DNA of 64,000 nt from an uncultured Chloroflexia bacterium (GCA_963799675.1 CAWCXQ010000007.1:25130-89129), one strand, 5' to 3'. Positions 9,742-46,415 are shown, counted from the stretch's first letter. Notes: a model not told the origin generated them from the letters alone. A program made the numbers and translations.

Positions 9742-10573
9742 CGGACCGGTCGCTTTGCGCCGGGTGGAGCATCGGCGTGCCCCAGCCGCTGCGGTGCCGA
9801 ATGATGAGCCACGCGCCGGCAAGGACGAAGCCGAGAATGCCGATCCACATCGCCGTCGGGATCCCGAGGATGACCCAGTTCTGCGTCCGGAAGGTCTCGA
9901 GGGCGCTGCGCACCGCGCCGTACCACATGATGTACAGGAGCGCGACGTCTCCGTCGTAAAGCCGGCTGGCCCACCGCCTGGCGACATACAGCAGCACGGC
10001 CATCCCGATCAGGTTGAGGATCGCCTCATACGCGAACAGCGGATGAAAGCGCGTGGTGGCGACCGGATAGATGCTCAGGTTCATCCACTCCGGGAGCCGA
10101 TGCGCCGCGTCGATCGGGATCCCCCACGGCAGGGTGGTGGGCGGGCCGTAGAGCTCCTGGTTCACGAAGTTGCCGAGACGGCCGATGGCCTGGCCGAGCA
10201 GGAGCGCGGGGGCAAAGATATCGAGCCAACGCGCGGTGGAGAGCCCCTTGGCACGGGTATAGAGCCAGATCGCGAGCGCGCCGCCGGCGACCGCGCCCGG
10301 AATCCCGATCCCGCCGTTCCAGACCTGTGGGATCAGCTCGGGGTGCTTCGAGTAGATCGCATCCCACTCGTGAATGACGTGGTAGATCCGGGCGGCGACG
10401 ACAGAGACGACCACGACCGGAAGCAGCATCGACCACCCTTCGTCGGGGTCCTCGCCCTTGCTCTTCGCAATGCGGGCGCCGAGCAGCGCCGCCAGCAGCA
10501 CCGCTGCGGCGATGATGATGCCGTACCAATGCAGCTCCAACGGGCCGATGCGCAGGGCGATGGGATCGATCAC
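9692..10573 (-). CDS. lgt: Prolipoprotein diacylglyceryl transferase (canonical)
   Basis: IDPIALRIGPLELHWYG, GRLGNFVNQELYG, HP..YE, YGAVR. Confidence 0.92.
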   Translation of the reverse strand: MIDPIALRIGPLELHWYGIIIAAAVLLAALLGARIAKSKGEDPDEGWSMLLPVVVVSVVAARIYHVIHEWDAIYSKHPELIPQVWNGGIGIPGAVAGGALAIWLYTRAKGLSTARWLDIFAPALLLGQAIGRLGNFVNQELYGPPTTLPWGIPIDAAHRLPEWMNLSIYPVATTRFHPLFAYEAILNLIGMAVLLYVARRWASRLYDGDVALLYIMWYGAVRSALETFRTQNWVILGIPTAMWIGILGFVLAGAWLIIRHRSGWGTPMLHPAQSDRSDELASAAQPGPEPSPG

Positions 10574-27976: not shown

Positions 27977-29185
27977 TCAGGCGGCCTCGGCGCGCAGCAT
28001 TCCCGGGGTGAGCTGCTCGCACAGCAGCCGCCCGACGCCCTCGGTCTGCCCGATCGCCTGCAGCCAGGATCCGACCAGCCGCGGAGCATAGGCCCGCGAG
28101 AACGGGTCGACCCGCAGAAGGGGATGAGCGAGGCGCTCCATCACCCGATCGACTTCGCGATCGGTCAGCAGGCCCATCTCGGCCAGGTACCCGCGCGCCT
28201 CGGAAGCGGGCAGGCCGTCCTGGTGGAGGAGAAGCGCGGCGTTCGATGCCGCCGGCGCCAGGAGCCTCCGCGCGCGACCTACCTCCAGGTCGCGCTCGAC
28301 GTCGACGTGGAGCCCGAGCTTTCGTCCGATGCGGCGCAGCTCGGCACTGAGCTCGTAATCGCCAAGCACTGCCTGGCGGCCGACGGCGCCCAGCCCATCG
28401 GCGAGCGCGGTGTCGGGGCTCACCGCACACAAGGCCGATACCTCCCAGCGGTCGCCCTCCTCCGCGACAGCCTGCTGACGACTCACCCGCTGCGCGTGAC
28501 GGCCGGGATAGGTCTCCGCGGCGATCGAGCGCAGGAGCGTGTCGAGCGGCCAGTCGATGGCCAGGTTCAGCTCCAGCCGCGTCTCACGGGGACCAGCCGC
28601 GGCCAACCGCGTATCCCACGCTCCACCGCCGATCTCCCATGGCTCGAGGATCAGCAGCTCGCCGCGCGGCAGAGAGAAATCCTCCGCGCAGCGGTCGCGG
28701 AGGAGCGCGATCAGCTGGTGCGCCACGGCGGCAACCTGCTCCGAGGGGACGACGGTCGCGCGGCGATGTTCTGCGAGGCGTGCGCGGAGCGACGGCCCTG
28801 GCGGGAGCGCCGCGTCGAGGAGCCGGTGCGTGGCGCTGAGTGAGGCCTCCGGCTCCTGCTCGGCGGGGATGTCGAGGAGCTGCTCGACGAGCTCCGGCAG
28901 CGCGATCTCGTCGCCGGCGATCGTCCGCGCGGCTGCGCTCAGCGCGGTCAGCTGGGCCGCCAGCCAGGTGCCGCGCACGGCGTCGGAGGCGGAGCCGGCC
29001 CCCTGATCCGCGGCCAGCTCGTGCAATCGCAGGGCCTCGTCGTGGAGCTCCGGGGGAGAGGCCGGCGGCTCGCCGGCGACCACCTCCGCGAGCTCGGCCG
29101 GTCCGAGGTACGCATCCAGCAGACCGCGCTGCAGGCGACCCAGCCGTAGGGCGAGCAGCAGGTAGCGTCGGGCGATGTCGTCCAT
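27977..29185 (-). CDS. Hypothetical protein, DUF885-like with degenerate metal motif
   Basis: RRYLLLALRLGR..LDAYLGP N-terminus; AAETYPGRH in place of recalled HEgYPGHH; family assignment from memory only. Confidence 0.55.
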   Translation of the reverse strand: MDDIARRYLLLALRLGRLQRGLLDAYLGPAELAEVVAGEPPASPPELHDEALRLHELAADQGAGSASDAVRGTWLAAQLTALSAAARTIAGDEIALPELVEQLLDIPAEQEPEASLSATHRLLDAALPPGPSLRARLAEHRRATVVPSEQVAAVAHQLIALLRDRCAEDFSLPRGELLILEPWEIGGGAWDTRLAAAGPRETRLELNLAIDWPLDTLLRSIAAETYPGRHAQRVSRQQAVAEEGDRWEVSALCAVSPDTALADGLGAVGRQAVLGDYELSAELRRIGRKLGLHVDVERDLEVGRARRLLAPAASNAALLLHQDGLPASEARGYLAEMGLLTDREVDRVMERLAHPLLRVDPFSRAYAPRLVGSWLQAIGQTEGVGRLLCEQLTPGMLRAEAA

Positions 29186-29229
29186 GCGGAGCGCATGCTA
29201 CGCGCCGCACGGCGTCATACACTCCGCCG

Positions 29230-30078
29230 ATGGAGTCGATCCGCATCGCGACCGAGGCCGACCTTCCGACGATCGCTGCGCTGCGCCAATCGGCCGGCTG
29301 GAACGTCTACCGCTGGGCGCTGCTCGACGCGATGCGCGCGCCACATGCCCGGATCTACCTCGCCGAAGTGGCCGGCGAGGCGGTCGGAATCGGTTCGGGA
29401 ATCGCGTACGGCCGGCTCGGGGTGGTCGGCAACATGGTCGTTTCCGCGGCGCATCGGGGCCACGGCATTGGGCGAAGAATCCTGGAGTCGGTGATCGCGT
29501 TCCTCGAGGGGCGCGACTGCACCCAGCTGGAGCTGTACGCAACCCCCGATGGCCGACGCCTGTATGAGCACTACGGCTTCGAGCTCACCGGGCGGAGCGT
29601 CGCCGCCAGCATTCCGCGCACGATCGCGGGCGGGCTGCCCGCTGACGGCGTCGCCGTCGACGAGGGCCAGAAGGGCGACCTCGGCGAGCTCGCCGCATAC
29701 GACGCGCCGCGCTTCGGCGGGGACCGCTCGCCGATCCTTGCCGCGGCCCTCGCAGATCGCGACCGACCGGTGCTGATCGCGAGGGGCGACGGCGCGATGG
29801 CGGGATACGCCGTGCTCCGACCGGACGGGACGAGGCTCGGCCCCTTCCTCGCCGACGAGCCCGCCGTGGCCGGTGCGCTGCTCGCCTCGGCCGTACGCCT
29901 CGCTCCACAGGTCGAGGCGATGGGTGCGCAGCTGCCGGGCGAGAACGTGGCGGGGATCGGCTGGCTGAAAGGGCTCGGGGCGACCCTCGAACCGTGGGAC
30001 GGGGGCATGCGCCGCGGGTCCGGCATCCATCGGCGCCACGAGACGATCTACGGCAGTGCGATCGGCGCGCTTGGCTGA
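29230..30078 (+). CDS. Tandem GNAT acetyltransferase
   Basis: VSAAHRGHGIG, YATPDGRRLYEHYGF, YDAPRFGGDR, LGPFLA. Confidence 0.85.
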   Translation: MESIRIATEADLPTIAALRQSAGWNVYRWALLDAMRAPHARIYLAEVAGEAVGIGSGIAYGRLGVVGNMVVSAAHRGHGIGRRILESVIAFLEGRDCTQLELYATPDGRRLYEHYGFELTGRSVAASIPRTIAGGLPADGVAVDEGQKGDLGELAAYDAPRFGGDRSPILAAALADRDRPVLIARGDGAMAGYAVLRPDGTRLGPFLADEPAVAGALLASAVRLAPQVEAMGAQLPGENVAGIGWLKGLGATLEPWDGGMRRGSGIHRRHETIYGSAIGALG

Positions 30079-31015
30079 GCCGAACCCCGAAGCGATCGGC
30101 GATCGACTAAGCGGCACTGTGCTGCGCGCGCGAAGCAGCTTCTACTCCGTCGAGACTCCCCGGGGCGTGATCGAGTGCCGCCTGCGCGGCCGCATGAGGA
30201 AGGAGCGGCAGGCCAGTGACCTGGCCGTCATTGGCGATCGCGTCTCGCTCACGCCGCTGCCGGATGGCACGGGCATCATCGAGGCGGTCGAGCCACGCGC
30301 GAGCAAGTTCAGCCGGCGCCAGCCGGGGCCGCGCGGCACCTGGCGCGAGGATGTGCTGGTTGCCAATCTCGACCAGGTTCTGATCGTCTTCTCGTGCGCG
30401 GACCCAGCGCCGAACCCACGCCTGATCGACCGATTCCTGGTGGTCGCGGAGCAGAACGAGATCGACGCGGTGCTGATCGCGAACAAGGTCGAGCTTGTCG
30501 GCGAAGCGGCCGCTGGATCGGTCTTCGGCCTGTACGACGATCTCAGCTATCCGGTCATCTACACGTCGGCCAAGACGGGCCAGGGCGTCGAGGAGATGCG
30601 GGCGAGCCTGGCTGGACGGATCAGCGTGATCACGGGGCCGTCGGGAGTCGGCAAGTCGTCGCTCCTCAACCGGCTGCAGCCGGGGCTGCGGATCGTCACG
30701 GCAGAGGTCAGCGAAACGCTGCGCAAGGGACGCCATACGACCACGTCGGCGGAGCTGCACGCCGTCGAGGGGCCGAGGCGCGGACACGTCGCCGATACGC
30801 CCGGCCTCCGCGAGCTCGGGCTCTTCGAGGTGCCGGCTTCGGAGCTGGCCTGGTGCTTCCGGGAGATGCGGCCCTTCCTGGGCAGCTGCGCGTTCAACGA
30901 CTGCAGCCACCTGCACGAGCCGCGCTGCGCGGTGCGGGCCGCGGTCGAGCTCGGCGACGTGCCTCCGCAGCGCTACGAGAGCTACCGCCGCCTGCGCACC
31001 GAGGAGGCTCGCTAG
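30056..31015 (+). CDS. rsgA: Ribosome small subunit-dependent GTPase A
   Basis: GDRV, NKVEL, GPSGVGKSS, GRHTTT, DTPG, CAFNDCSHLHEPRC. Confidence 0.95.
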   Translation: MRSARLAEPNPEAIGDRLSGTVLRARSSFYSVETPRGVIECRLRGRMRKERQASDLAVIGDRVSLTPLPDGTGIIEAVEPRASKFSRRQPGPRGTWREDVLVANLDQVLIVFSCADPAPNPRLIDRFLVVAEQNEIDAVLIANKVELVGEAAAGSVFGLYDDLSYPVIYTSAKTGQGVEEMRASLAGRISVITGPSGVGKSSLLNRLQPGLRIVTAEVSETLRKGRHTTTSAELHAVEGPRRGHVADTPGLRELGLFEVPASELAWCFREMRPFLGSCAFNDCSHLHEPRCAVRAAVELGDVPPQRYESYRRLRTEEAR

Positions 31016-31034
31016 CCGCCGTATCATCCGGAGC

Positions 31035-31700
31035 GTGGAGATCAGCCCCGCTGTCCACGCCGTCAAGATGCTGGGCGCCGACGCCTTCGTCCTCGCCGAG
31101 GAACGGCTCACGCTGATCGATGCCGGCATGGTCGGATCGCGGCGACGGATCGTGCGCTACCTCGAGCGCATCGGCCGCTCCCTGGATGAGCTCGACCACA
31201 TCGTGTGCACGCACGGCCATCCGGACCATATCGGGGGCGTTGCCGAGCTCTCCGGCGACGGGGTCGAAGTGATGATGCATCCAGCGGATCTCGAGGGGCT
31301 GCGCCTGGGGATCCGGGAAGTGGTGGCGAGCCGGAGTCGCGGACACCTGATCCAGTACCTGACGCGTCCTCCGACTCACGCGACGCCCCTGCTCGACGGC
31401 CAGGTCCTGCCGATGCTTGGTGGGCTGGAGGTGGTGCACACCCCGGGCCACACGCCGGGGAGCGTCTGCCTGTATGCAGCTCGCGACCGCATCCTGTTCA
31501 GCGGCGACGTTCTCCAGGTGATCCGCGGACGCCTGACCTTCGCCAGCCCGCTCTTCAGCCACGACATGGCGGAGGCGCGCGCCTCGGTCGAGCGGCTCGC
31601 GGAGCTTGACGTCGACACGATCGCCTTCTCTCACTATCCGCCCTGGCGCCGCGATCCGAGCGGGGCGCTCCGCGAGCTCGTGGCAGAGGCCACTGGCTAG
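31035..31700 (+). CDS. MBL-fold metallohydrolase
   Basis: IDAG, THGHPDH, TPGHTPG, FSGD, FSH. Confidence 0.88.
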   Translation: MEISPAVHAVKMLGADAFVLAEERLTLIDAGMVGSRRRIVRYLERIGRSLDELDHIVCTHGHPDHIGGVAELSGDGVEVMMHPADLEGLRLGIREVVASRSRGHLIQYLTRPPTHATPLLDGQVLPMLGGLEVVHTPGHTPGSVCLYAARDRILFSGDVLQVIRGRLTFASPLFSHDMAEARASVERLAELDVDTIAFSHYPPWRRDPSGALRELVAEATG

Positions 31701-31770
31701 CGAGCAACCGCAGTGGCGCCGCAGGGCGGCGTGGTCACCATTGCCCTCGACCCGAGCCGAGGTAGCCTAA

Positions 31771-34271
31771 ATGGAAACGCTGGTCGACCTGGTCACGGAA
31801 GCCGGACGGCGGTTCGATCGCCGTCCCGCGCTGCTGATCCGACCGGTCTTCCGCACCCGGAAATGGCGCTACCGGGACCTTGCGCGGCTTGTCCCACGCG
31901 TCGCGGGCGTCCTCGCCGGGGTCGGAATCGAGCAGGGCGATCGGGTCATCATCTGGGCAGTCAATCGCCCGGAGTGGGGGATTGCATTCCTCGGCGCCGC
32001 CCACGCGGGTGCCGGTGCTCGTCCCGCTCGACGTGCGCACCCCGGCCGATCTGGCGCAGAAGATCGTGGAGCGGACGACGCCGAAGCTCGTCCTGGCGTC
32101 GGCCCAGACGCTCGCAGCGGCGAGTGCGCTCGGGCTGCCGGTGCTGCCGATCGAGCCGCTCCCTGACCTGGCCCGCACGGTGAAACCTCTGTCCTCGCCG
32201 GAGATCGGCCCCGATGACCTGGCCGAGATCGTCTTCACCTCGGGTACGACCGGCGAGCCGAAGGGCGCGATGATCAGCCATCGGAACCTGGTGAGCAACG
32301 CGAGGGTCCTCGTCGAAGTCTTCACGATGGCTCCCGCCGAGCGTCTCCTCTCGGTCCTGCCGCTCTCGCACCTCTTCGAGCAGGTCCCGGGCTTCCTTGC
32401 ACCGCTCGTGGCCGGCGCGAGCGTGGTCTATCCGGTCAGCCGCCAGCCGGCGGTGCTCATGCGGACCTTCCGCGATTTCCGCGCGACGATGCTGCTGATC
32501 GTGCCGCAGGGACTGAAGCTGCTCGACAACGCGATTGAGCGGCGGGTCGACTCGTCCGGCCGGCGCGAGAGCTTCGAGCGGCTCCACGCCTGGGCGCGGA
32601 GGCTTCCCATGCCGCGTGCGAGCGTCTGCTCTTCCGGCCGGTGCTGAGTGCCTTCGGCGGCCGCCTGCGGACGATCGCGGTTGGGGGCGCCGCGATGGAC
32701 GTCGCGCTGGCGCCGCCGCTGGAGCGAGATGGGGGTGGAGGTGCTGCAGGGCTACGGCGCGACCGAGATGAGCCCGGTCGTCAGCTTCACGCGTCCCGGG
32801 CGCAACCGGATCGGGAACGGTCGGCGAGCCGGTGCCAGGGGTCGAGCTGCAGGTTGCCCCGGATGGAGAGGTCTGGGTCCGGGGTCCGGGCAGGTTTGCC
32901 GGCTACTGGAAGGACCCCGACGCGACCGCGGCGGTGATCGATCGCGATGGCTGGTATCACACCGGCGACCTCGGCAGCCTCGGGGCCGATGCGCAGCTGA
33001 CGCTTCACGGTCGGAAGAAGGACATGCTGGCCCTGGCCGATGGGAGCAAGGTCTACCCCGAGGATATCGAGGCGATTCTCGCCGCCGACCCGCGGGTGCG
33101 CGACGCGGCGGTGGTCGGGCTGACCCGGGACGGTGAGCTCCGCGTCCACGCCGTCCTCCTTACCGCTCAACCCGATGAGGCTGACGCGATCGTGCGCCAG
33201 GCGAATACCCGGCTGACCGGCAGCCAGCAGATTCGCTCGCACTCGATCTGGCCGGACGATGATTTCCCCCGCACCCCCACCCAAAAGGTGAAGAAACGGC
33301 TCGTCGTTGACAGCCTGGGCCAGGAGCAGCCCGGCGCCGAGCCTGCCGGCGAAGCGGCTCGGGTCCCTCAGCCGAACGCCGCGACTGCGACCGGCACCGA
33401 CGGACTGATCGGGCTGGTCGCGGGGGTCGCCAACGTTCCGCCGACATCGGTCAATCCGGGGTCGAGGCTCAGCTCGGACCTGGGGATGGACTCGTTGGCG
33501 CGGGTCGAGCTGCTCGGCGTGATCGAGGAAGAGCAGGGTGCTTTCGTCGACGACTCCGCGCTCGACCCGGATGCCACCGTCGAGCAGCTCGAGGCAATGG
33601 TCGAGGCGGCTCGCGACGCCAAGCGCGAGACCGGGATCTTTGGCTGGCCCCTCAACCCGCTCGTGCGCGTCCTCGGGCTCGGCATCCAGGAGCTGCTCAT
33701 CGCCCCCGTCCTTGGTCTCTTCTACCGCGTGCGGATCACCGGCGAGGAGAAGCTCGCTGAGCTCGAGGGCCCGGTGATCTTCCTGCCCAACCACTGCCTG
33801 CATACCGACAACGCGATCATCCTCACCAGCCTGCCGTTCCGCTGGCGGTGGAACCTGACGGTTGCCGCCGCCGCGGACGATATCTTCGGCAACCCGATCC
33901 GGGGCCTCGGTGCCGCGGTAATCGGCAATGCATTTCCCCTCGCGCGCGAGGGCGCCATCCGTCGCAGCCTCGAGCTGTTGGGCGCGCGCCTGGACCGCGA
34001 CTTCTCCGTCCTGATCTATCCCGAGGGCAAGCTCACGGTTGGCGGGCCGATGCAGCCCTTCAAGTCCGGCGCGGGCCTCATCGCGGTCGAGGGCGCAACG
34101 CCGGTGGTGCCCATGAAGGTGAAGGTCCACCGGATGTCGCGCATCGACGCCGCCGGGGCGCCGCTGCGCGGCGACGTGGAGCTGCTCTTCGGCGATCCGA
34201 TCTACTTCACCGCCGGGACCGATGCCAACTCGGCGACTGCGCGGCTCGAGGCGGCGGTGGCGGCCCTGTGA
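31771..34271 (+). CDS. Acyl-CoA/AMP ligase - ACP - acyltransferase fusion, several indels
   Basis: [34 protein letters not shown]; ACP motif LGMDSL; LPLAT motifs NHCLHTD and IYPEG. Confidence 0.85.
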
Positions 34272-34290
34272 CCGCCCGGGCGCGGGCCTG

Positions 34291-35113
34291 ATGCTGCCCA
34301 CCGTCGAGCTCGGCTCGGTCCAGGTCTCGACGCACGACTTCTTCACGATGCTCGGCCTGCTCGTCGGGCGTCGTGTGGTACTACCGAGCACTGCACCGTG
34401 ATCGCCTCCTCGAGCCACGGATCGTCATCATCAGCGTCGCCGCCCTGCTCGGCGGCGCGGTCGGCGCACATCTCATCACGTCGTGGGAGGTCGCCGACGA
34501 GGTTGCGCAGGCCGGGCTGCCCGCTCACCTACGTGCTGACGCACGGGCCCAAGAGCATCCTCGGCGGACTCGCCGGGCGGCTACCTGGCGATCGTGATCT
34601 CCAAGCGGGTCCTCGGCTACGATCTGTCCACCGGCGACTACTACGCTGCCGCCATTCCGCTCGCGCTGGCAATCGGCAGGATCGGATGCTTCCTCGCCGA
34701 GCTCCCGCTCGGCACGCCGACGAGCCTGCCATGGGGCATGACAGTCAGCCCGGAGGCGGCCGCCGCCTTTCCCCGCTGTCCCGGCTGCGGCGGCCCGATG
34801 CACCCTTCGATGCTCTACGAGATCGGCTTCCACGCGGCCGCGTTCGCGCTCATCTGGCGCCGGTCGCCACTCCTGCCCATTCGCGGCGACACGCTGAAGC
34901 TCTACCTGCTGGCCTACGGGCTCTTCCGCTTCGGCGTCGAGTTCGTGCGGGGCAACGAGGTGCAGTCGCTTTGGGCTGACCGGCCCGCAGCTGGTGCTCA
35001 TCCCGCTGACCGCGCTGCTCGTCATCCACTTCGTCCGGCGCCTGCGCAGCGGCGCCTATCGACTTCCCGCGCCGCCGGCGGCGCAGACCGCAACAGGGGA
35101 GGGTCTTAGGTGA
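34291..35113 (+). CDS. Lgt-family paralog (non-canonical), several indels
   Basis: KSILGG, GRIGCF, LPWG, CPGC, HPSMLYE, YGLFRFGVEFVRG. Confidence 0.78.
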
Positions 35114-35385
35114 CCAGAGAGGTCGATCCGCGGATCGCGGAATACGTCCGCAAGCATCGCCAGCGATACACGCCGGAGGCGATCCGGCAGCGGCTGATCG
35201 AGGCCGGCTACCCCGCGCCCGACGTCGATGCTGCCCTCATGGCGCTGATCCAGGAACCGCCCCGACGGCGAAGTGCGTGGGGCACGGTGCTCCAGGTCCT
35301 CCTCGTCACCATCGCAGTCATCTGCGTCGGCGCGCTGCTGATCGGCGCCGTCTGCATCGCGCTCATTCTCGGCATCAACGGCTAA
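35110..35385 (+). CDS. Small membrane protein with RRR-hydrophobic-Cys C-terminus
   Basis: GTGA overlap with the Lgt paralog; ...PPRRRSAWGTVLQVLLVTIAVICVGALLIGAVCIALILGING. Confidence 0.7.
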   Translation: MTREVDPRIAEYVRKHRQRYTPEAIRQRLIEAGYPAPDVDAALMALIQEPPRRRSAWGTVLQVLLVTIAVICVGALLIGAVCIALILGING

Positions 35386-35395
35386 GGAGAATCGC

Positions 35396-36938
35396 ATGCT
35401 CGCCCTTCGTCCCTACACGCCGCTGCGGATGGTGCTCACCGTCTGCGGCCACTGCTTCAGCGATGACCCGAACCGCGAGATCGACTATGCGACCGACGTC
35501 CTGCAGGGGAACCTCGTGCTCATGGACGGATCGGTCTATCTCCGACGCCACTGCCAGCGCGGGCACGGCGAGGTTGTCAGCCTCTACGACGAGGACTACG
35601 ACCTGTGGAGCTACCTCCAGCAGTGGCGCGTGCCGACGCGCGAGATCATCCCGGACACCCCCGACAACGTGCTCCCTATCCCGATGGGCTACCGGAGCGG
35701 ACTCGGTGAGCTGCAGACGCAGCATTCCTGCATCCTGCTGATCGACGTCACCGAGGCGTGCAACCTGCGCTGCCCGACCTGCTTCGCGGAGAGCGGGCCG
35801 GGAATCGGCCGCTACGCACGCCTGCCGCACATCCTGCGGTCGCTGGACGCAAGCATCGAGCGCGAGGGCGGCAAGATCGACGTGCTGATGCTGTCCGGCG
35901 GCGAGCCGACCGTCCATCCCGAGATCGTCGAGATCATTCGCCAGGCGACGGCTCGTCCGGTGACGAGGGTGCTGCTGAACACCAACGGGGTGCGCATCGC
36001 GAAGGACGACAAGCTGCTGGCCGAGCTCGCCAGCCTGCGTGACCGGGTCGAGGTCTACCTCCAGTTCGACGGCTTCGAGCTCGAGACGCACCTCTATCAC
36101 CGCGGCGAGGACCTGCGCGCGGTGAAGGAGGCTGCCATCCGGCGCCTGACCGATGCCGGCATCTTCACGACGCTCACCATGGTCGTCGCAGCGGGCGTCA
36201 ACGAGCACGAGATCGGGCGCGGTGGCGGACTACGCATTCGCGACCGAGTACATCGCCGGAGTCGCCTACCAGCCGGTCTTCGGATCTGGCCGCGCCAACC
36301 CGATCGACCCGATGCAGCGCATGACCACCACCGGCGTCCTGCGCCGCCTGGCGCCGCAGACCGACGGACGCGCCTCGGCCGCGGACTTCATCGCGCTGCC
36401 CTGCAGCCACCCTGACTGCTGCGCGATCAGCTACTTCGTCCGCGGCGACGATGGCCGGCATCGGTCGGTCGTGGACATGGTCGGCATCGAGCGGATCAGG
36501 GCAAACCTCGGCCTGGTCGGGAACCGGATCGCGGCCGACGACGGCCTCTGGCAGTCGCTGATGGGGATGATGAGCGAGACGACGACGGTCACCCGGCCCG
36601 AGCTGCTCGACTACCTGGTCAACATCTGCGAGGCGTGCGACATCGGCCTGTCGGGCTTCCTGCGGTCGTTAGGCGACATGGTCATGAAGCGGGAGCGTGC
36701 CTCCGAGGCCGTCGCCAAACGCGTGAAGCGGCTGACGGTGAAGTCGTTCATGGACGCATGGACGCTCAACATCGAGCGGCTGCAGCAGTGCTGCGTACAC
36801 GTCGGCTCGACCGATGCGGAGACCGAGCCGGTCCGAATTCCCTTCTGTGCACGGCAGCTGTTCGGCTCGCTCCGGACGCGCACGTCTGCGGGCCAGGTCG
36901 GAGCGCGGGAGCTGGTCAGGCTGGAGAGCCTGCGATGA
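35396..36938 (+). CDS. Radical SAM enzyme of the Tes/GDGT-MAS (MJ0619-like) family, indel near 36215
   Basis: CGHC..CQRGH, DVTEACNLRCPTCFA, GGEPT, TNG, YLQFDG, QPVFGSGR, SHPDCC, FMDA, RLQQCCVH, IPFC; TAAGGAG SD. Confidence 0.85.
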
Positions 36939-37231
36939 CCGAATGGCTTGCAACCCCTGCCGGGCTCCGTCCGGGGCCGACCCAGGCCGAGAAGTGGGAG
37001 AAGGCCGCCTTCACGTTCTGCAAGATGGGCACGACCGGACTCATCGCCTGGGTGCTCACGCCTGCGGTCTTCGTGCTGGTGGTGGCGGCGCTCGCGATCG
37101 CCCTCTACGGTCGGGCTATCGCGCTGGGCGTCACCCGCAGCAAGTGCTTCCTGCGCAGGCCCACGTACATCATCGGCCTCTGGGCGACGGTGGGGATCGC
37201 CGACGCGGTCTGGCTGCTGGTGCCGCGCTGA
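36935..37231 (+). CDS. Small membrane protein, last gene of the radical SAM operon
   Basis: ATGA overlap; hydrophobic segments; convergent with the next gene. Confidence 0.65.
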   Translation: MTEWLATPAGLRPGPTQAEKWEKAAFTFCKMGTTGLIAWVLTPAVFVLVVAALAIALYGRAIALGVTRSKCFLRRPTYIIGLWATVGIADAVWLLVPR

Positions 37232-37245
37232 GGCCAGTTCCCAGG

Positions 37246-40200
37246 TCAGCGCCTGGCTCGGCGGCCCAGCCGGATCACCGAGAGCACGAGCGACCCGAAC
37301 GCGAGGAAGGTCGCCAGCAGGGTTGGAACGAAGCGTTGCTGCGCGGCGGTATTCGGAAGACCACCGGACATGCGCGGCTCGGTCACCACGATGGTCGTCA
37401 CCTGGTTGGAGGTGTCATTGGCGGGATCGGGGTCGGTGGTGCCGCTGCTGGTGACGCTGGCGGTGTTGTGGAGGCTGCTGCCCACCGGCGCCGCAGCCGC
37501 GAGGGTGACGTGGATCGTGAAGCTGCGCGCGGCGCCAAGGGCCAGTGCGCCGCCGCTGCACGTCACCAGCTGGCCGACCACCGAGCAGGCGGCATCGCTG
37601 CCGCTCGACTGGAAGCTGAGCCCGACCGGCAGCATGTCGCTGAGCACAAAGCCGCCCACGTTGTCGGAGGGACCCTGGTTGGTGACGGTCAGGCTGTAGT
37701 CGAAGCCGGCCGCGTCGCCGGCCAGCGCGCTGGGGGGACCGCTGTTGGTGAGCACCAGGTCGGCTCGGGTCGTGACCGTGGCGCTTGCGCTGGCCATGTC
37801 GTTGCTGCTATCCGGGTCCGAGGTGGTGCTGGCCACGCTGGCGGTGTTGCTGAGGATGGCTCCCTCCGGCGTGTTGGCCGCCACCATGGCGCCGATGCGG
37901 AGCGTCAGGCTCTCGCCGGCCGCGAGCGCCCAGGCTGAGAGGGCTGCTCCAGGCCATCCCGCCGGATGGGTCGCACAGCGCGCCAAGGCAGTACGTGGCT
38001 CCGCTCAGCGGCGCGGGCAGCAGGTCGCTGAGGCTGACCGCCTGCGCGTCACTGGGACCTGCATTGTCGATGGTCAGGGTGTAGGTCAGCAGCGTGCCAG
38101 CCACGACCGGATCGGGGTCCACCGAGATCGTCGCCGACAGGTCGGCCGCGGTCACGACCAAGGTCGTCACCTGGTTGGAGGTGTCATTGGCGGGATCGGG
38201 GTCGGTGGTGCCGCTGCTGGTGACGCTGGCGGTGTTGTGGAGGCTGCTGCCCACCGGCGCCGCGGCCGCGAGGGTGACGTGGATCGTGAAGCTGCGCGCG
38301 GCAGCGAGGGCCAGCGCGCCGCCGCTGCACGTCACCAGCTGGCCGACCACCGAGCAGGCGGCATCGCTGCCGCTCGACTGGAAGCTGAGCCCGACCGGCA
38401 GCATGTCGCTGAGCACGAAGCCGCCCACGTTGTCGGAGGGACCCTGGTTGGTGACGGTCAGGCTGTAGTCGAAGCCGGCCGCGTCGCCGGCCAGCGCGCT
38501 GGGGGGACCGCTGTTGGTGAGCACCAGGTCGGCTCGGGTCGTGACCGTGGCGCTTGCGCTGGCCACGTCGTTGCTGCTATCCGGGTCCGAGGTGGTGCTG
38601 GCCACGCTGGCGGTGTTGCTGAGGATGGCTCCCTCCGGCGTGTTGGCCGCCACCATGGCGCCGATGCGGACCGTCAGGCTCTCGCCGGCCAGCAGAGCGT
38701 GCCCAGGCTGAGAGGGCTGCTCCAGGCCATCCCGCCGGATGGGTCGCACAGTGCGCCAAGGCAGTACGTTGCTCCGCTCAGCGGCGCGGGCAGCATGTCG
38801 CTGAGGCTGACCGCCTGCGCGTCACTCGGACCTGCATTGTCGATGGTCAGGGTGTAGGTCAGCAGCGTGCCAGCCACGACCGGATCGGGGTCGACCGAGA
38901 TCGTCGCCGACAGGTCGGCGGCCGGGTCACCCACTGCGAAGTCACTGAAGGTGGTCAATCCGCCAGCTGTGATCGAAGTCGCGGTGCGCTGCGTAACATT
39001 TGGTGCCGTCCAGGTTCCGCCGGTGAGCTTCGCGACGACAAAGGCCGCGCTGCTGGCGCCGGGATCCACGTCCGACGGGACCCAGGCCAGGGCGATGTCG
39101 TAGTCGGTGAACACGAGACCCGCCGCCGTGAGAGTCCAGTACCGGTTCACGCTGAGCGCCGGGTTGATCACCGAACCGGCGAGTGCCGGGTGGTCGCCCG
39201 GTGTCGTCGACGCCGTCAGCTGGCCTCCCGTGAAAACCTGGCCGAATGTGACGGTCGCGGGCGCATAGACCGAGGCGTCCCCAATCTCGAACATGACGGC
39301 GGTGTTCAAGCCTGCAACGATCGGCTTGCGCAGGCTGCCGATAACGTGGCCAGTGAGCCGCGTGACCGAGCCCGCTGGACCGATGGTGGTGACAAACGTC
39401 GCCGAGTCGAGGTTGCCGCCTGTGAGGCCAAGCGTTCCATCGACGGTAAGCGCCGCGCCCAGGGTCAGCCCCGCGGGATTGTTGATGGTCAGGTTGTTGA
39501 GGGACGCGACGCTTGGCGGCAGCGTGATGCCGGCCGAGGAGCCGTTGATCACGATGGACGACGTCGAATCGGCCGCGAGATTATTCGCGGTGCCAGCGAT
39601 TGGCTTGGCGATGGATAGCGTGTGGGCGCCGACTGTGAATGGTCCGTTGGCAAGGGTCAGCGTCCCGTTCACCGCGATCGAGCTCGCCAGCGTGACTCCC
39701 GCCGCGTCGTTGATCACAAGATTGAAGAGCGCGATCGCCCCCGACCCGCTGATCGCCTGGCCCGACGTCCCGTCCAGGAGGAAGGTGCTGCCGCCGGAGT
39801 TCAGCGTGCCGTTCACGACCAGGTCGCCGAGGACCTCGACAGTGCTGCTGTTGGCGCTCAGCGTCCCCGCGATCGTCAGGCGCCCGCCGACGAGGATGGG
39901 AGCGTTGGCCGGTGCGGTGGTCAGCGTTCCGCCGCTTACCGTCAGGTCCGCATTCACCGCGAGAGCGTTGCCCACGGTGACTGTCCCCGCGGTCACGACC
40001 AGGTAGGCGAATGACATTCCGCTCGCGCGTAGCGTGATGGAAGCGGCGATCACCAGCGTGCTGCTGCCGGGATCGACCGTGCCGCTGGTATAGGTCCAGT
40101 TGCGCCCGGTGCGCAGGGTGCCGGCCAGGGTCAGCGTGCCACCGCTCTTGGCGATCTGCAGGTTGGGCAGGGCACCGGCCGCCGGGGTGGCGGCACCGGT

Positions 40201-43047
40201 GAAGGTCTGGTTGGCGGCACCGTCGATGAGCAGCAGCCCGGTGCCGCCCGCGAAGGTCGAGGCCTGGCTGATCGCCCCGCGCGCGGCCAGCGTGCCGGTA
40301 TTGAACGAACCGGAGGTCAAGCTCAGCGTGCCGGAGACGGTGACGATGGCGCTGGCCACCCCGGTGATGGTGCCGCCGCGCAGGTCGAAGTTGGCGAGCG
40401 GCATGTTGCCCGATAGGATGCCGGCCGTCATCACCAGCGTGCTGCTGCCGGGATCGACCGTGCCGCTGGTATAGGTCCAGTTGCGCCCGGTGCGCAGGGT
40501 GCCGGCCAGGGTCAGCGTGCCACCGCTCTTGGCGATCTGCAGGTTGGGCAGGGCACCGGCCGCCGGGGTGGCGGCACCGGTGAAGGTCTGGTTGGCGGCA
40601 CCGTCGATGAGCAGCAGCCCGGTGCCGCCCCCGAAGGTCGAGGCCTGGCTGATCGCCCCGCGCGCGGCCAGCGTGCCGGTCCCGTTGAGGGTGGCCGCGG
40701 TGAGCGTGGTGGCACCGTTCACGATCAAGGTGCCATCCAGGGTGATGGTGGCGGCCACCGGCAGGTTCAGCCCACCCGACAGGGTGACAGTGGTGCCGAC
40801 CGGCACGCTCATCGAGCCGCGGATCTCCAGGTTCGCCAGGTCATGGCTGCCCGATAGGATGCCGGCCGTCATCACCAGCGTGCTGCTGCCGGGATCGACC
40901 GTGCCGCTGGTGTAGGTCCAGTTGCGCCCGGTGCGCAGGGTGCCGGCCAGGGTCAGCGTGCCACCGCTCTTGGCGATCTGCAGGTTGGGCAGGGCACCGG
41001 CCGCCGGGGTGGCGGCACCGGTGAAGGTCTGGTTGGCGGCACCGTCGATGAGCAGCAGCCCGGTGCCGCCCCCGAAGGTCGAGGCCTGGCTGATCGCCCC
41101 GCGCGCGGCCAGCGTGCCGGTATTGAACGAACCGGAGGTCAAGCTCAGCGTGCCGGAGACGGTGACGATGGCGCTGGCCACCCCGGTGATGGTGCCGCCG
41201 CGCAGGTCGAAGTTGGCGAGCGGCATGTTGCCCGATAGGATGCCGGCCGTCATCACCAGCGTGCTGCTGCCGGGATCGACCGTGCCGCTGGTATAGGTCC
41301 AGTTGCGCCCGGTGCGCAGGGTGCCGGCCAGGGTCAGCGTGCCACCGCTCTTGGCGATCTGCAGGTTGGGCAGGGCACCGGCCGCCGGGGTGGCGGCACC
41401 GGTGAAGGTCTGGTTGGCGGCACCGTCGATGAGCAGCAGCCCGGTGCCGCCCCCGAAGGTCGAGGCCTGGCTGATCGCCCCGCGCGCGGCCAGCGTGCCG
41501 GTCCCGTTGAGGGTGGCCGCGGTGAGCGTGGTGGCACCGTTCACGATCAAGGTGCCATCCAGGGTGATGGTGGCGGCCACCGGCAGGTTCAGCCCACCCG
41601 ACAGGGTGACAGTGGTGCCGACCGGCACGCTCATCGAGCCGCGGATCTCCAGGTTCGCCAGGTCATGGCTGCCCGATAGGATGCCGGCCGTCATCACCAG
41701 CGTGCTGCTGCCGGGATCGACCGTGCCGCTGGTATAGGTCCAGTTGCGCCCGGTGCGCAGGGTGCCGGCCAGGGTCAGCGTGCCACCGCTCTTGGCGATC
41801 TGCAGGTTGGGCAGGGCACCGGCCGCCGGGGTGGCGGCACCGGTGAAGGTCTGGTTGGCGGCACCGTCGATGAGCAGCAGCCCGGTGCCGCCCCCGAAGG
41901 TCGAGGCCTGGCTGATCGCCCCGCGCGCGGCCAGCGTGCCGGTCCCGTTGAGGGTGGCCGCGGTGAGCGTGGTGGCACCGTTCACGATCAAGGTGCCATC
42001 CAGGGTGATGGTGGCGGCCACCGGCAGGTTCAGCCCACCCGACAGGGTGACGGTGGTGCCGACCGGCACGCTCATCGAGCCGCGGATCTCCAGGTTCGCC
42101 AGGTCATGGCTGCCCGATAGGATGCCGGCCGTCATCACCAGCGTGCTGCTGCCGGGATCGACCGTGCCGCTGGTATAGGTCCAGTTGCGCCCGGTGCGCA
42201 GGGTGCCGGCCAGGGTCAGCGTGCCACCGCTCTTGGCGATCTGCAGGTTGGGCAGGGCACCGGCCGCCGGGGTGGCGGCACCGGTGAAGGTCTGGTTGGC
42301 GGCACCGTCGATGAGCAGCAGCCCGGTGCCGCCCCCGAAGGTCGAGGCCTGGCTGATCGCCCCGCGCGCGGCCAGCGTGCCGGTCCCGTTGAGGGTGGCC
42401 GCGGTGAGCGTGGTGGCACCGTTCACGATCAAGGTGGTTCCGGCAGCGATCGTCTTCGTGCCCGATGCGAAGATCACATTGTTGAACGCTGCGGTGCCGC
42501 CGAGGTCGATCGTGGCAGCGCTGGTCGCGAAGCTCACGGTCCCGCCGTTGGGTACATACGTGCCGGCGCCCTTGGTGAAGTTGCCCGTGACGGTCAGCGT
42601 TCCGCTTGTGCTCGTGAACGTGCCGCCGGTCAGGGCGAAGGGACCATTGATGGTGAGGGCTGCCGACCCCCCAGCGAATCCTCCGGCGGCCTGACTGAAC
42701 CCCATCGCTCCAACTGTCACAGTCACGCCGCCGGACTGCGTCAGCGTCCCGCTGTAGCCTGCGTTGACGGCCAACCCTGCGACGCTGACGTTGACATTCA
42801 GCGTGGCCGGCTTCGCGCTCGTGCCGTCGAAGACGGCCGTGTCGCCGGCGGCTGGAACCACGAGGCCCGACCAGTTGAGGGCGTCATTCCACAGATTGCT
42901 TGCCCCAAGGCCTGTCCAGGTCCGCGTAGCTCCGGCCGCAGGCGTTGGTGTAACAGCGAGCAGCACGGCGACAGCCGTGACGAGGACGAGAGACGCGAAC
43001 CATGCCCGCATGAAGGGGCTCGGACGGCGCCTGTCGACGAATCGCAT
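37246..43047 (-). CDS. Giant secreted repetitive surface protein (about 1,900 aa): signal peptide, beta-helix-like tandem repeats, DUF11 domains, LPNTA sorting signal; split into three ORFs by indels near 38700 and 37920
   Basis: ORFs 38674-43047, 37808-38749 and 37246-37986 are contiguous in sequence; ADLSATISVDPDP..LTYTLTIDNAGPSDA DUF11 pattern; LPNTA + hydrophobic stretch + RRARR. Confidence 0.8.
37410..38900. repeat. Tandem duplication of about 769 bp covering two DUF11 domains, plus a partial third copy
   Basis: Matching antisense ORFs start at 37745 and 38514; near-identical sequence. Confidence 0.85.
40020..42440. repeat. Intragenic near-identical tandem repeats of 441 bp (A) and 381 bp (B), gene order A-A-B-A-B plus a partial unit
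   Basis: Identical antisense ORF starts at 40100, 40481, 40922, 41303, 41744 and 42185 (spacings 381, 441, 381, 441, 441). Confidence 0.92.
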
Positions 43048-43755: not shown

Positions 43756-44525
43756 CTACAGGACCGGCGCCACCGTGTCGCCGACGCTGACGATGCCGGG
43801 CTCAACGACCTCGGCGTAGACGCCGAAGTCGAGATGGCGGCCGTCCCGCAGACCGCGGTAACGCTTGATGGCGTGAAGCGTCGGGAAATCGCGGGCCCCG
43901 GTATCCGGGTCCTGGGTCGTGATAGCGCAACGCGGATCGGGGCGAGTGACGCGAACGACGGCATCGCCGATCCGCACGTGGTGACCCTGCCAGCGATCCT
44001 CCTGGTGAGGATCCGCGCCGGCGACCTGCACGAGCATCCGGAAGCGGCGGGCGTCGAGCGTGCGGTCGAGGCCCCGACCGTCGAGAGAGCTCCTCGACGG
44101 ATGCCTCCGAGACGATAGAGACCGCTTCCCGGTCGGGCTCGCCGCTGTCGCGCTCGGCCCGGACGAGCTCCAGCGGCCTGCCCACGAACGCGGAGACCGC
44201 CTCGGCCCAGGGACCGATCACCGGCCGAACCGGGAACGCGCGCCCGTGGGCCTCGACCCTGGTCGGCTGGCCGAGGGCAACTTCGCCGCGCACGACGCTG
44301 CCGTCGGGAAAGGTGAGCGTGAGCCGTTCCGGGTCGGCCCGGAGCTCCGCCCGAATCTGGACCAGCCTTCCATCCGCGATCCCGTCGAAGGGCCGGCCGT
44401 CGGGCGTCAGCAGTGGAGTATCTCCGGTCGTCGACGACCCCGATCTGCTCGAGCCGCACGCTGCTCGGGTGCAGCAGCGCCATCCCGCGAACCGGCGTGA
44501 CGGAGAGGCGTGAGACGCTGAGCAT
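43756..44525 (-). CDS. MOSC domain protein, indels
   Basis: LSVSRLSVTPVRG, DDRRY, RFRMLV, EDRWQG, RCAITT, FGVYAEVVEPG.V.VGD. Confidence 0.82.
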
Positions 44526-44582
44526 TGAGTGACACTAGCAGGCGAGGTCTCGCCACGGCGGTGTCGTAACGTGGAGGGCGCA

Positions 44583-45517
44583 ATGATCCACGTCGAGGAC
44601 CTCGTCAAGCGCTATCGCAAGGCGCCGCGCAACGCCGTGGACGGCATCTCGTTCGAGGTGGAGCGCCGGCGAGTTCTTCGCGCTGCTCGGGCCCGAACGG
44701 CGCGGGCAAGACGACCACGATCTCGATCCTGACGACGACGCTGGCGCCGACCAGCGGGCGGGCGACGATCGACGGGCACGACATCGTGACCGAGGCGAGC
44801 GCCGTGCGCCGCAAGGTCGGGATCATCTTCCAGCGGCCGAGCCTCGACCAGAACCTGACCGGCGAGGAGAACATCCGCTTCCACGCCGTGCTCTACGGGC
44901 TCTTCCCGTACGCGCCGGCGTGCGATCCTGATGGAGCCGCGGCTATCGGCGCCAGGTCGAGGAGCTGAGCGCGGCTGCTGGGCGTCGCGCGCGACATCTT
45001 CAAGCCGATCCGGACGTACTCCGGCGGGATGCGGCGCAAGCTCGAGATCATGCGGAGCCTCATGCATCGAGCCGAAGGTCCTCTTCCTCGACGAGCCGAC
45101 CGCCGGGCCTCGACGTGCCGACCCGACGGACGCTGTGGGCGTACCTCAGCGAAGTCCGACACGAGATCGGTACGACCGTGTTCCTGACGACCCACTACCT
45201 CGAGGAGGCCGAGCAGGCGGACCGGATCTGCATCATCGAGCGGGCCGGGTCGTCTCGAATCGGCACGCCGGACGAGATCAAGGCCGACCTCGTCGAGGAG
45301 TACGTCCTCGTCGACGCGGCCGATCGTGCCGGCCTGCGCGACCGAGCTGGCGCGGCTCGGCCTGCCGCACGCGGGCGACGGCCCCTTCAAGGTCGAGCTC
45401 GACGGGCGCGGCGTGCACGCCGATCCTCAAGGCGATCGAGACGCCGCTGACGATGGTCAAGACCCATACCCCGAGCCTCGAGGACGCCTACCTGGAGATC
45501 GTCGGGCAGGCCGATGA
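44583..45517 (+). CDS. ABC exporter ATP-binding subunit (DrrA-like), indels
   Basis: LLGPNGAGKTT, YSGGMRRKLEI, LFLDEPT, FLTTHYLEEAE. Confidence 0.87.
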
Positions 45518-46296
45518 GTGAGGTGTCCGCGGTCCTCGTCATCGCGCACCGGGATTTCATCAAGCTCCTGCGCGACCGCACCCGGCTGGTCACCGACTTC
45601 GCCTTCCCGCTCATCTTCATCGGCATCCTCGGGAGCAGCCTGCAGGCGGGCTTCGGCTCGCCGAACGGCCTGAACCTGCTCGACCTTCGTCTTCACCGGC
45701 GTGCTGGCGCAGACGATCTGGCAGTCGTCGGCGCTGGGCGTCATCTCGCTGGTCGCCGACCGCGAGCAGGACTTCAGCCAGGAGATCTTCGTGTCGCCGA
45801 TCTCCCGCTACTCGATCGTCGTTCGGCAAGATCCTCGGCGAGTCGCTCGTCGCGCTGCCCCAGGCGGTCGCGATCATCGCCTTCGGCCTGCTGCTCGGCG
45901 TGCCGCTCTCGCTCCCGGTCCTGCTGGCCATGGTCCCGATCATCCTCGTCGTCGCCGTCTTCGGCGGCGCCTTTGGCGTGCTCGTGCTCTCCAGGCTGCC
46001 GAATCAGCGGGCGGCGAACCAGATCTTCCCGTTCGTCATGCTTCCGCAGTTCTTCCTGGCGGGGATCTTCAACCCGATCCAGAAGCTTCCCTGGTTCCTG
46101 GACATCCTCTCGCAAGCTTTCGCCGATGCGCTACGCGGTCGACCTGCTCCGCGACGTCTACTACGCGATCGAGCCGGAGCCGGTCAACGTGCCGCTGCTC
46201 AGCGCGCCGGTGAACCTGGCGATCATCGGGGCCATGTTCGTGGCCTTCATCGTGGTCGGCACGACTCTCTTCGTACGCGCCGAGCGCAACCGCTGA
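45514..46296 (+). CDS. ABC-2 permease, indels
   Basis: ATGA overlap; DREQDFSQEIFVSP, PQFFLAGIF, PMRYAVD. Confidence 0.85.
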   Translation: MSEVSAVLVIAHRDFIKLLRDRTRLVTDFAFPLIFIGILGSSLQAGFGSPNGLNLLDLRLHRRAGADDLAVVGAGRHLAGRRPRAGLQPGDLRVADLPLLDRRSARSSASRSSRCPRRSRSSPSACCSACRSRSRSCWPWSRSSSSSPSSAAPLACSCSPGCRISGRRTRSSRSSCFRSSSWRGSSTRSRSFPGSWTSSRKLSPMRYAVDLLRDVYYAIEPEPVNVPLLSAPVNLAIIGAMFVAFIVVGTTLFVRAERNR

Positions 46297-46415
46297 CGCG
46301 CGAGGTCACCGGTCGAAGCGCTGGCCGCCGCCTGCCGTCGCGTCATTTCGCCATCCGCCTGCGCGTGCTGACCAGTCACGCTGCACGGTAACCGAGGCAC
46401 GGGAGCGGGCCTGAC

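Follow-up and report, generated by a model that had tools for sequence, protein, structure and literature searches.

An Lgt paralog paired with a radical SAM enzyme of the GDGT-MAS/Tes fold in a conserved bacterial gene module

The locus and its conserved four-gene module

The DNA analyzed here, referred to as the window, is a 64,000-nucleotide stretch from an uncultured Chloroflexia bacterium (GCA_963799675.1 CAWCXQ010000007.1:25130-89129). Our subject is a cluster of five plus-strand genes at positions 31771 to 37231, in which a paralog of the lipoprotein enzyme Lgt lies beside an enzyme of the radical S-adenosylmethionine (SAM) type that is related to the tetraether synthase Tes (GDGT-MAS). 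The source genome belongs to the Chloroflexota, measures 2.57 Mb in 19 contigs, and is 64.9% complete; close protein relatives of the window proteins carry the label Candidatus Limnocylindria. The five genes, with domain content by Pfam, are as follows, where sizes are in amino acids (aa) and single-base insertions or deletions are called indels.

31771..34271, + strand: fusion of an AMP-binding fatty-acid ligase, a PP-binding carrier, and a PlsC-type Acyltransferase (Pfam), about 832 aa, four indels
34291..35113, + strand: Lgt paralog (Pfam LGT), about 272 aa, four +1 insertions
35110..35385, + strand: small membrane protein, 91 aa, intact open reading frame (ORF), no Pfam or NCBIfam family
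35396..36938, + strand: radical SAM enzyme of the MJ0619/Tes/TrsS superfamily (Pfam Radical_SAM, above cut-off), about 513 aa, one +1 insertion
36935..37231, + strand: two-helix membrane protein, 98 aa, recognized by alignment, no Pfam or NCBIfam family

The ligase fusion is followed by the Lgt-like gene after a gap of 19 nucleotides (34272-34290), and the Lgt-like gene overlaps the 91-aa gene through GTGA (35110-35113). The start of the radical SAM gene is an ATG at 35396 preceded by AAGGAG, a Shine-Dalgarno (SD) sequence, and the gene is translationally coupled to the 98-aa gene through an ATGA overlap (36935-36938). A first-pass annotation, made from the sequence alone, had described five genes coupled by GTGA, SD, and ATGA junctions, and both the sequence and Pfam bear this out. 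The radical SAM motifs that it quoted (CGHC..CQRGH, DVTEACNLRCPTCFA, YLQFDG, FMDA, QCCVH, and IPFC) are likewise all present in the translation. A scan of 30900-37700 for promoters and terminators found no sites and is hence uninformative.

The annotation's treatment of the five genes as one unit did not survive a comparison of gene neighborhoods. Our survey took one genome per species and yielded 571 stretches encoding a relative of the radical SAM enzyme, of which the best 80 loci were analyzed. These come from the Chloroflexota (Limnocylindria, Chloroflexia, Anaerolineae, Chloroheliaceae, Oscillochloris, and Herpetosiphonaceae), the Actinomycetota (Acidimicrobiia, Nitriliruptoria, Pseudonocardiales, and the cultured Nonomuraea bangladeshensis JCM 13930), the Acidobacteriota (Blastocatellia and Thermoanaerobaculia), and the Gemmatimonadota (Gemmatimonadaceae). 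In 72 of these 80 species loci the Lgt-like and radical SAM genes are adjacent, with the Lgt-like gene nearly always upstream and on the same strand; the remaining 8 are on contigs that end 0.1-2.4 kb upstream of the radical SAM coding sequence, so that adjacency holds wherever enough DNA is available. In 69 of 80 loci the radical SAM gene is followed by the gene for the two-helix protein, and a protein with a conserved cysteine in a transmembrane helix was detected in 60 of 74 loci under a strict filter and in several others by eye.

Intact orthologs in family relatives are arranged in the order Lgt-like gene, one to four small membrane proteins, radical SAM gene, and two-helix protein. In a member of the basal subclade the order is radical SAM gene, LGT, a zinc-ribbon cysteine protein, and the two-helix protein; because the pairing is kept there with the order reversed, the association between the Lgt-like and radical SAM genes survives rearrangement. 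Two representative proteins (P0181 and P0208) are natural fusions of LGT, Zn ribbon, and Radical_SAM domains. The paralog is present in the cluster-bearing genomes G000, G022, and G024 and absent from G006, G012, and G014, which have no close radical SAM homolog, and a canonical Lgt is also present in every genome checked for the paralog. Within one family the module is patchy, occurring in 6 of 25 genomes.

The two enzyme genes, Lgt-like and radical SAM, and the small cysteine membrane proteins are thus strongly co-conserved, as the annotation proposed, whereas the ligase-acyl carrier protein (ACP)-acyltransferase fusion is present and absent independently of them. It is missing from cluster-bearing G022, G024, and G222 and is found in G012, G140, and G317, which show no close radical SAM homolog (E <= 1e-30), and we rejected it as an obligate member. 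Because the ligase fusion is not co-conserved, the conserved unit consists of four genes: the Lgt paralog, at least one small membrane protein with a G-x-C motif, the radical SAM enzyme, and the two-cysteine, two-helix protein. Since these are co-conserved and sometimes fused, a joint lipid or lipoprotein function can soundly be inferred. No description of Lgt paired with a radical SAM or tetraether enzyme was found in the literature searched.

The two enzymes and their small membrane partners

The radical SAM enzyme had been assigned to the Tes/GDGT-MAS type, an identity that holds for its motifs and fold and fails for membership of the Tes family proper. Its best solved sequence relative is GDGT-MAS (PDB 7TOL, E 7e-38). 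When an AlphaFold2 model of the G024 ortholog (pLDDT 73.7, pTM 0.82) was searched with Foldseek, GDGT-MAS (7TOM) was matched over the full length (E 1.9e-25, TM-scores 0.66/0.69), and all other matches covered the radical SAM core alone, with TM-scores of <=0.32. Family models give lower marks. On the Tes model NF045702 the intact ortholog scores 187.3 bits and the window pieces 116.1 and 41.7 bits, against a cut-off of 450; the best-scoring NCBIfam model is that of TrsS (NF045646), at 225 bits for the ortholog, far under its cut-off of 490. The Pfam model Zn_ribbon_HMPTM reaches 23.9 bits, below the 27-bit cut-off. TrsS itself was found, in the literature searched, just within a selenoprotein list (PMC13188914), and no description of its function was found there.

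The enzyme and its orthologs form a sharply bounded group. When 1.84 billion representative proteins were searched, the scores of full-length members (>=45% identity) ran from 423 to 786 bits, and the next full-length proteins reached 228 at most. An unrooted tree of 85 sequences sets the 19 rows of the clade apart on a branch 0.85 long, which has 100% support in the Shimodaira-Hasegawa-like approximate likelihood ratio test (SH-aLRT); on the other side lie MJ0619 and 65 further rows, including all homologs that bear the N-terminal cluster. Tes has four metal sites, among them [4Fe-4S]N with three Cys ligands and one His ligand; its C-terminal cluster is implicated in lipid-radical capture, and its mechanism passes through a carbon-sulfur intermediate (review PMC13459092). 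The [4Fe-4S]N ligand motif CPxDCGxCxxH is present in MJ0619 and in the Chloroflexota homologs that score 330 to 380 bits on the Tes and TrsS models alike, here called tier-2 homologs. It is absent from all clade members examined, in which the aligned stretch reads PIPMGY..GLG.LQTQH and lacks those cysteines. Twelve residues are invariant in 22 sequences (C20, C23, C56, H60, C125, C129, C132, C339, C344, C469, C470, and C488), and the invariant cysteines of the clade align with those of MJ0619 at the rubredoxin-like 3Cys+His site, the CxxxCxxC motif (CNLRCPTC), and the C-terminal cysteines; the alignment assigned no Met ligand to the C-terminal cluster. The first-pass annotation had named clustering outside Tes as an outcome that would refute it, and by that test the enzyme, which has the GDGT-MAS/Tes fold, constitutes a clade of its own outside Tes proper.

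Gene context separates the clade from Tes as well, since archaeal and Acidobacteriota Tes genes are not encoded beside an Lgt paralog and small cysteine proteins. A Tes-like gene occurs in 76 of 121 sampled Acidobacteriota genomes (G325-G447) and exceeds the Tes cut-off in 23. These genes fall into at least three score classes, namely, above 450 bits, 300-346 bits, and about 140-260 bits, the last being matches to the N-terminal half only, and adjacency to LGT is confined to this lowest class. In 32 Acidobacteriota genomes checked, none of the above-cut-off homologs (13 in 12 genomes) and none of the 300-346-bit homologs adjoins an Lgt gene; the only genes in these 32 genomes that do are one of the clade type (G325:C104) and one of another type (G419:C82). 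In G033, G306, G162, and G194, tier-2 Chloroflexota homologs have an Lgt-like partner gene, in some cases with cysteine-bearing small proteins as well; those of G039 and G013 are unpaired. Pairing with Lgt thus marks particular lineages of the superfamily; the idea that it is general to bacterial Tes homologs was rejected, as the Acidobacteriota Tes genes are unpaired. Because the Lgt-linked clade is distinct by both sequence and gene context, it should stay uncounted among the true Tes homologs that serve as genomic markers for producers of glycerol dialkyl glycerol tetraethers of the branched type (brGDGTs).

Two tier-2 loci have a setting of their own. A single-contig, 5.1-Mb Chloroflexota genome carries a cluster (L024, G194:C1, 4565-9074, + strand) in the order Lgt-like gene (which keeps N146), two cysteine membrane proteins, one of them with a zinc ribbon, a radical SAM gene bearing the N-terminal cluster motif, and a permease whose CTC motif we take to be ArsP-like, a reading that no search confirmed. 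In the other (L016, G039:C2, 5690-8160, - strand), the gene after a tier-2 Tes-like radical SAM gene encodes an ArsM-like SAM methyltransferase, and the protein P0267 is a fusion of a methyltransferase, a Zn ribbon, and a radical SAM domain. The ArsM-like neighbor and P0267 suggest that this superfamily also has another use, one linked to methylation.

The second enzyme of the module can be compared with a canonical Lgt encoded in the same window.

9692-10573, - strand: canonical Lgt, 293 aa (PF01790, 209 bits)

The Lgt-like orthologs score 103-104 bits on PF01790, whereas canonical Lgt in the same genomes scores about 209; the largest window piece, at 76.8 bits, is above the Pfam gathering score. 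On the equivalog model TIGR00544 the paralog reaches 61.2 bits, against a cut-off of 118.9. A mutational map of E. coli Lgt (PDB 5AZB) includes the catalytic-centre residues R143, E151, R239, E243, and R246 (PMC4728403). By exact alignment the paralog keeps R143, R239, E243, and R246, together with the HPSxLYE stretch, and E151 is aligned with a register shift of one residue. Across the clade, however, T-H-D replaces W-Y26-G27 and GR[VI]GC replaces GRLGN146, and a CPxC motif is gained ahead of HPS; the canonical Lgt of the window retains HWYG and GRLGN. The paralog also has Ile at H103 of the HGGL motif. We dropped this as a sign of a changed acceptor, and it carries no weight, because the canonical Lgt of the same genome reads GIPGA there and also lacks the His; the "essential" His103 is, accordingly, not universal.

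The small proteins sit between, or just ahead of, the Lgt-like and radical SAM genes. In the window, the 91-aa protein has at its N terminus a helical domain, IAEYVRKHRQRYTPEAIRQRL, and at its C terminus a transmembrane helix with the conserved cysteine, LLIGAVC. The N-terminal parts vary among loci, being either a helical YIRxNRxxYTxEAI domain, at times repeated, or a zinc ribbon, and the cysteine is conserved, in agreement with the first-pass description of a small cysteine-bearing transmembrane protein. Gly occupies position -2 to this cysteine in 47 of 60 loci, position -1 is I, S, L, T, or V, and a hydrophobic residue follows the cysteine; Nonomuraea, tier-2 clusters, and the basal subclade likewise have a G-x-C helix protein. 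The canonical lipobox has G, A, or S at -1. With Gly at -2 and a bulky residue at -1, the G-x-C motif is not a canonical lipobox, and the candidate acceptor motif of the module, L-x-x-x-G-x-C, lies inside the transmembrane helix of a dedicated small protein and not in a signal peptide. The cysteine is nevertheless placed much as in a lipobox, close to the outer end of a helix that we predict to be N-in.

The 98-aa two-helix protein has two conserved cysteines, in AFTFCKMG and SKCFLRRP. The motifs AF(T/S)(F/L)CK and (S/T)KC are kept across the whole clade, with AFSLCK..TKCWAKNP in the basal subclade. Searches of the small proteins against Pfam and NCBIfam matched no family except a zinc ribbon in one basal-subclade partner. 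In the closest relatives (L030 5080-5985, L032 1669-2586, L038 5145-5990, and others), an extra domain of about 150 aa follows the cysteine helix and ends in ISGT(I/V)(T/S)WxC(E/D/Q/R), with a second cysteine in the penultimate position.

Proposed function and alternatives

Co-conservation through rearrangement, natural fusions, a lipid-enzyme fold, a retained phosphatidylglycerol-binding centre, and a conserved intramembrane cysteine, all of them shown here, together support a physically coupled system acting on a glycerolipid and on dedicated cysteine proteins. We propose that the small protein is lipidated by the paralog and that Tes-type radical chemistry then tailors the lipid tails, a reading to which we give a probability of roughly 45%. 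The Lgt paralog, keeping the catalytic arginines that bind phosphatidylglycerol, would transfer diacylglyceryl to the conserved cysteine of its dedicated small protein, for which the small G-x-C protein is a candidate acceptor or partner. The two-helix protein would hold the radical SAM enzyme at the membrane, a task that fusion to the Lgt domain may serve in some organisms. The radical SAM enzyme would act on the terminal carbons of the acyl tails of the anchored lipid, joining them among themselves or to an opposite-leaflet lipid. Where present, the ligase-ACP-acyltransferase might supply or restore acyl chains, the role that Aas has in the lipoprotein pathway of E. coli. The identity of the acceptor, the order of the steps, and the chemistry are those that we infer from this arrangement.

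Several observations weigh against this proposal. The enzyme lies outside the Tes family by score and tree and is without one of the four metal sites. In the paralog, Y26 and G27, which are essential in E. coli Lgt, have become His-Asp, N146 has become Cys, and Y235 varies; another donor, acceptor, or reaction may therefore apply. The candidate acceptor motif is no canonical lipobox, its Gly being at -2 and its position -1 bulky, and the module neither needs the ligase gene nor has it to itself. The active site of Lgt is turned outward and radical SAM enzymes work in the cytoplasm, so that one lipid would have to reach both sites by a route that the proposal does not explain. Finally, the frameshifts in the window copy could be real, in which case that copy would be dead.

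A more specific version is that the N146C paralog links a glycerolipid to the intramembrane cysteine by a thioether and that the radical SAM enzyme, docked or fused to the paralog from the cytoplasmic side, joins the tail ends of this lipid to an inner-leaflet lipid. We regard this version as doubtful. If it is true, the module would make a protein lipid anchor of a new kind, and ordinary soil bacteria from several phyla would tether a protein through a lipid that spans the membrane.

Lgt and Tes are the founding enzymes of bacterial lipoprotein anchoring and archaeal tetraether lipid synthesis, respectively. A dedicated pairing of their relatives, conserved in at least four phyla, sometimes as one fused protein and accompanied by small cysteine membrane proteins, suggests a lipid or lipoprotein modification absent from the literature searched. 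Nonomuraea bangladeshensis JCM 13930 carries the module and is in culture, so that the question can be put to a direct test.

The first alternative to lipidation and radical tailoring of a small protein is a pathway for bulk membrane lipids, in which the radical SAM enzyme joins the tails of ordinary phospholipids to give a membrane-spanning lipid, the substrate of the Lgt paralog is a lipid and not a protein, and the small proteins are membrane adaptors only. This agrees with the fold and the closest solved structure, both of a tetraether synthase, with the fatty-acid ligase, with or without an acyltransferase domain, that is often adjacent in Chloroflexota, and with the phosphatidylglycerol-binding arginines retained in the paralog. 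We nonetheless consider it unlikely. The above-cut-off and 300-346-bit Tes homologs in the 32 Acidobacteriota genomes are unpaired with Lgt, which argues that the coupling of bulk-lipid tails needs no Lgt partner; a near-universal small protein with an intramembrane cysteine is left unexplained; and presence in 6 of 25 family genomes is unlike a core membrane-lipid trait. The same unpaired Acidobacteriota homologs, which are the brGDGT candidates, weaken the membrane-spanning-lipid reading of the first-pass annotation, while the joint lipid or lipoprotein function that it also implied is supported.

Less likely again is a role in peptide or protein maturation, in which the radical SAM enzyme modifies the small cysteine proteins, for example, by forming a thioether, and the Lgt paralog lipidates them before or afterward. 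Thioether formation at cysteine is known from SPASM-type maturases. Two different small proteins with invariant cysteines lie beside the enzyme, one of them translationally coupled to it, maturases of ribosomally synthesized and posttranslationally modified peptides (RiPPs) such as SkfB are among the weaker fold matches, and the Tes mechanism has a carbon-sulfur intermediate (PMC13459092). However, the only whole-length fold match is a lipid enzyme, with peptide maturases matching the core at a TM-score of about 0.3; the clusters showed neither a RiPP recognition element nor a leader-like region, and neither a protease nor an exporter; and the small proteins are multi-helix membrane proteins rather than short precursor peptides. 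A role in arsenic or selenium organometabolite chemistry was not adopted because ArsM-like, ArsP-type, and methyltransferase partners are absent with the clade in the window.

Frame breaks, accessory genes, and neighboring sequence

The ligase, Lgt-like, and radical SAM genes, that is, three of the five, are not single open frames in the assembly, a point on which the first-pass annotation was silent. Frameshift-aware alignment against intact orthologs placed nine single-base indels in total, at 32014 (+1), 32609 (-1), 32713 (+1), and 32810 (+1) in the ligase gene, at 34363, 34520, 34575, and 34972 (each +1) in the Lgt-like gene, and at 36221 (+1) in the radical SAM gene. Eight of the nine are one-base insertions, mostly within short runs of G or C, some of just two bases. 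With the indels removed, open frames of 832 (ligase), 272 (Lgt-like), and 513 aa (radical SAM) are restored, and in alignments of 62 sequences the corrected window proteins break 0 of 33 near-invariant family columns for the Lgt-like protein and 0 of 106 for the radical SAM enzyme.

The nine frameshifts are most probably patchy assembly errors, an origin made likely by similar frame breaks genome-wide. Same-strand frame switches number 2.6-3.0 per 10 kb in the genome and the window versus 0-1.3 in the loci of relatives, as counted by a crude detector, and the ABC ATPase at 44.6-45.3 kb also shows several frame changes. That the operon of this organism is a decaying cluster of pseudogenes with nine real indels is very improbable: nine indels do fall within 5.4 kb, and the flanks are uninterrupted over 3.7 kb upstream (27977-31700) and in a 4.4-kb downstream gene (38674-43047), but in-frame stops are absent, the near-invariant residues are all kept, the indels are of the biased type described above, like breaks affect unrelated genes and the genome at about five times the level of the relatives, and completeness is low for a genome in just 19 contigs.

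Damage like that of the operon is visible at 44300-46300 (+ strand), where an ABC ATPase and an ABC-2 permease are spread over three frames by several indels. Among the relatives, several that have few, long contigs are metagenome-assembled genomes (MAGs) of the long-contig type from one series. In the long-contig MAG G022, the region between the Lgt-like and radical SAM genes (L013, G022:C2, 6450-8650) contains several tandem copies of the N-terminal domain of the small protein with broken frames, and this assembly may likewise hold indel errors at those copies.

Upstream of the cluster lies one further gene that recurs with the ligase fusion.

31035..31700, + strand: metallo-beta-lactamase-fold (MBL) protein, 221 aa, intact (Pfam Lactamase_B, 113 bits)

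The window order of MBL gene, ligase-ACP-acyltransferase, and Lgt-like gene onward recurs in five other species loci. An MBL gene directly precedes the ligase fusion in L034, L042, L073, L097, and L020, and in L020 the fusion is intact, with 843 aa and the same domains. About 21 further Chloroflexota loci have a ligase-only gene, divergent and upstream. An AMP-binding ligase adjoins the cluster in about 27 of about 56 loci of the Chloroflexota-type subclade. In one metagenome locus, the MBL and fusion genes lie downstream of the cluster. No convincing match to the ligase fusion was found in loci of the multi-phylum subclade, where two weak matches had 30-32% identity (L096 and L106). The ligase fusion is thus a lineage-specific accessory, and the MBL gene is an accessory that travels with it.

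The YPEG motif of the ligase fusion is visible in the translation, and NCBIfam Aas-type models match both of its halves. Aas is an acyl-ACP synthetase/2-acylglycerophosphoethanolamine (2-acyl-GPE) acyltransferase that restores acyl chains in the E. coli lipoprotein pathway, and by analogy the fusion possibly serves in acyl-chain supply or restoration. Aas and the myxobacterial ElbD resemble it in combining an adenylating fatty-acid ligase, a carrier, and a PlsC-type acyltransferase in one protein; the window fusion differs in its ligase-ACP-acyltransferase order, in having no reductase domain, and in its facultative link to the module.

Downstream of the cluster, on the minus strand (37246-43047), a 1457-aa protein rich in Gly, Thr, and Ala has long, near-identical internal repeats. 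Its gene occupies 38674-43047 (4.4 kb), and two shorter paralogous ORFs lie downstream of it at 37246-37986 and 37808-38749. All three are uninterrupted despite the error-prone assembly.

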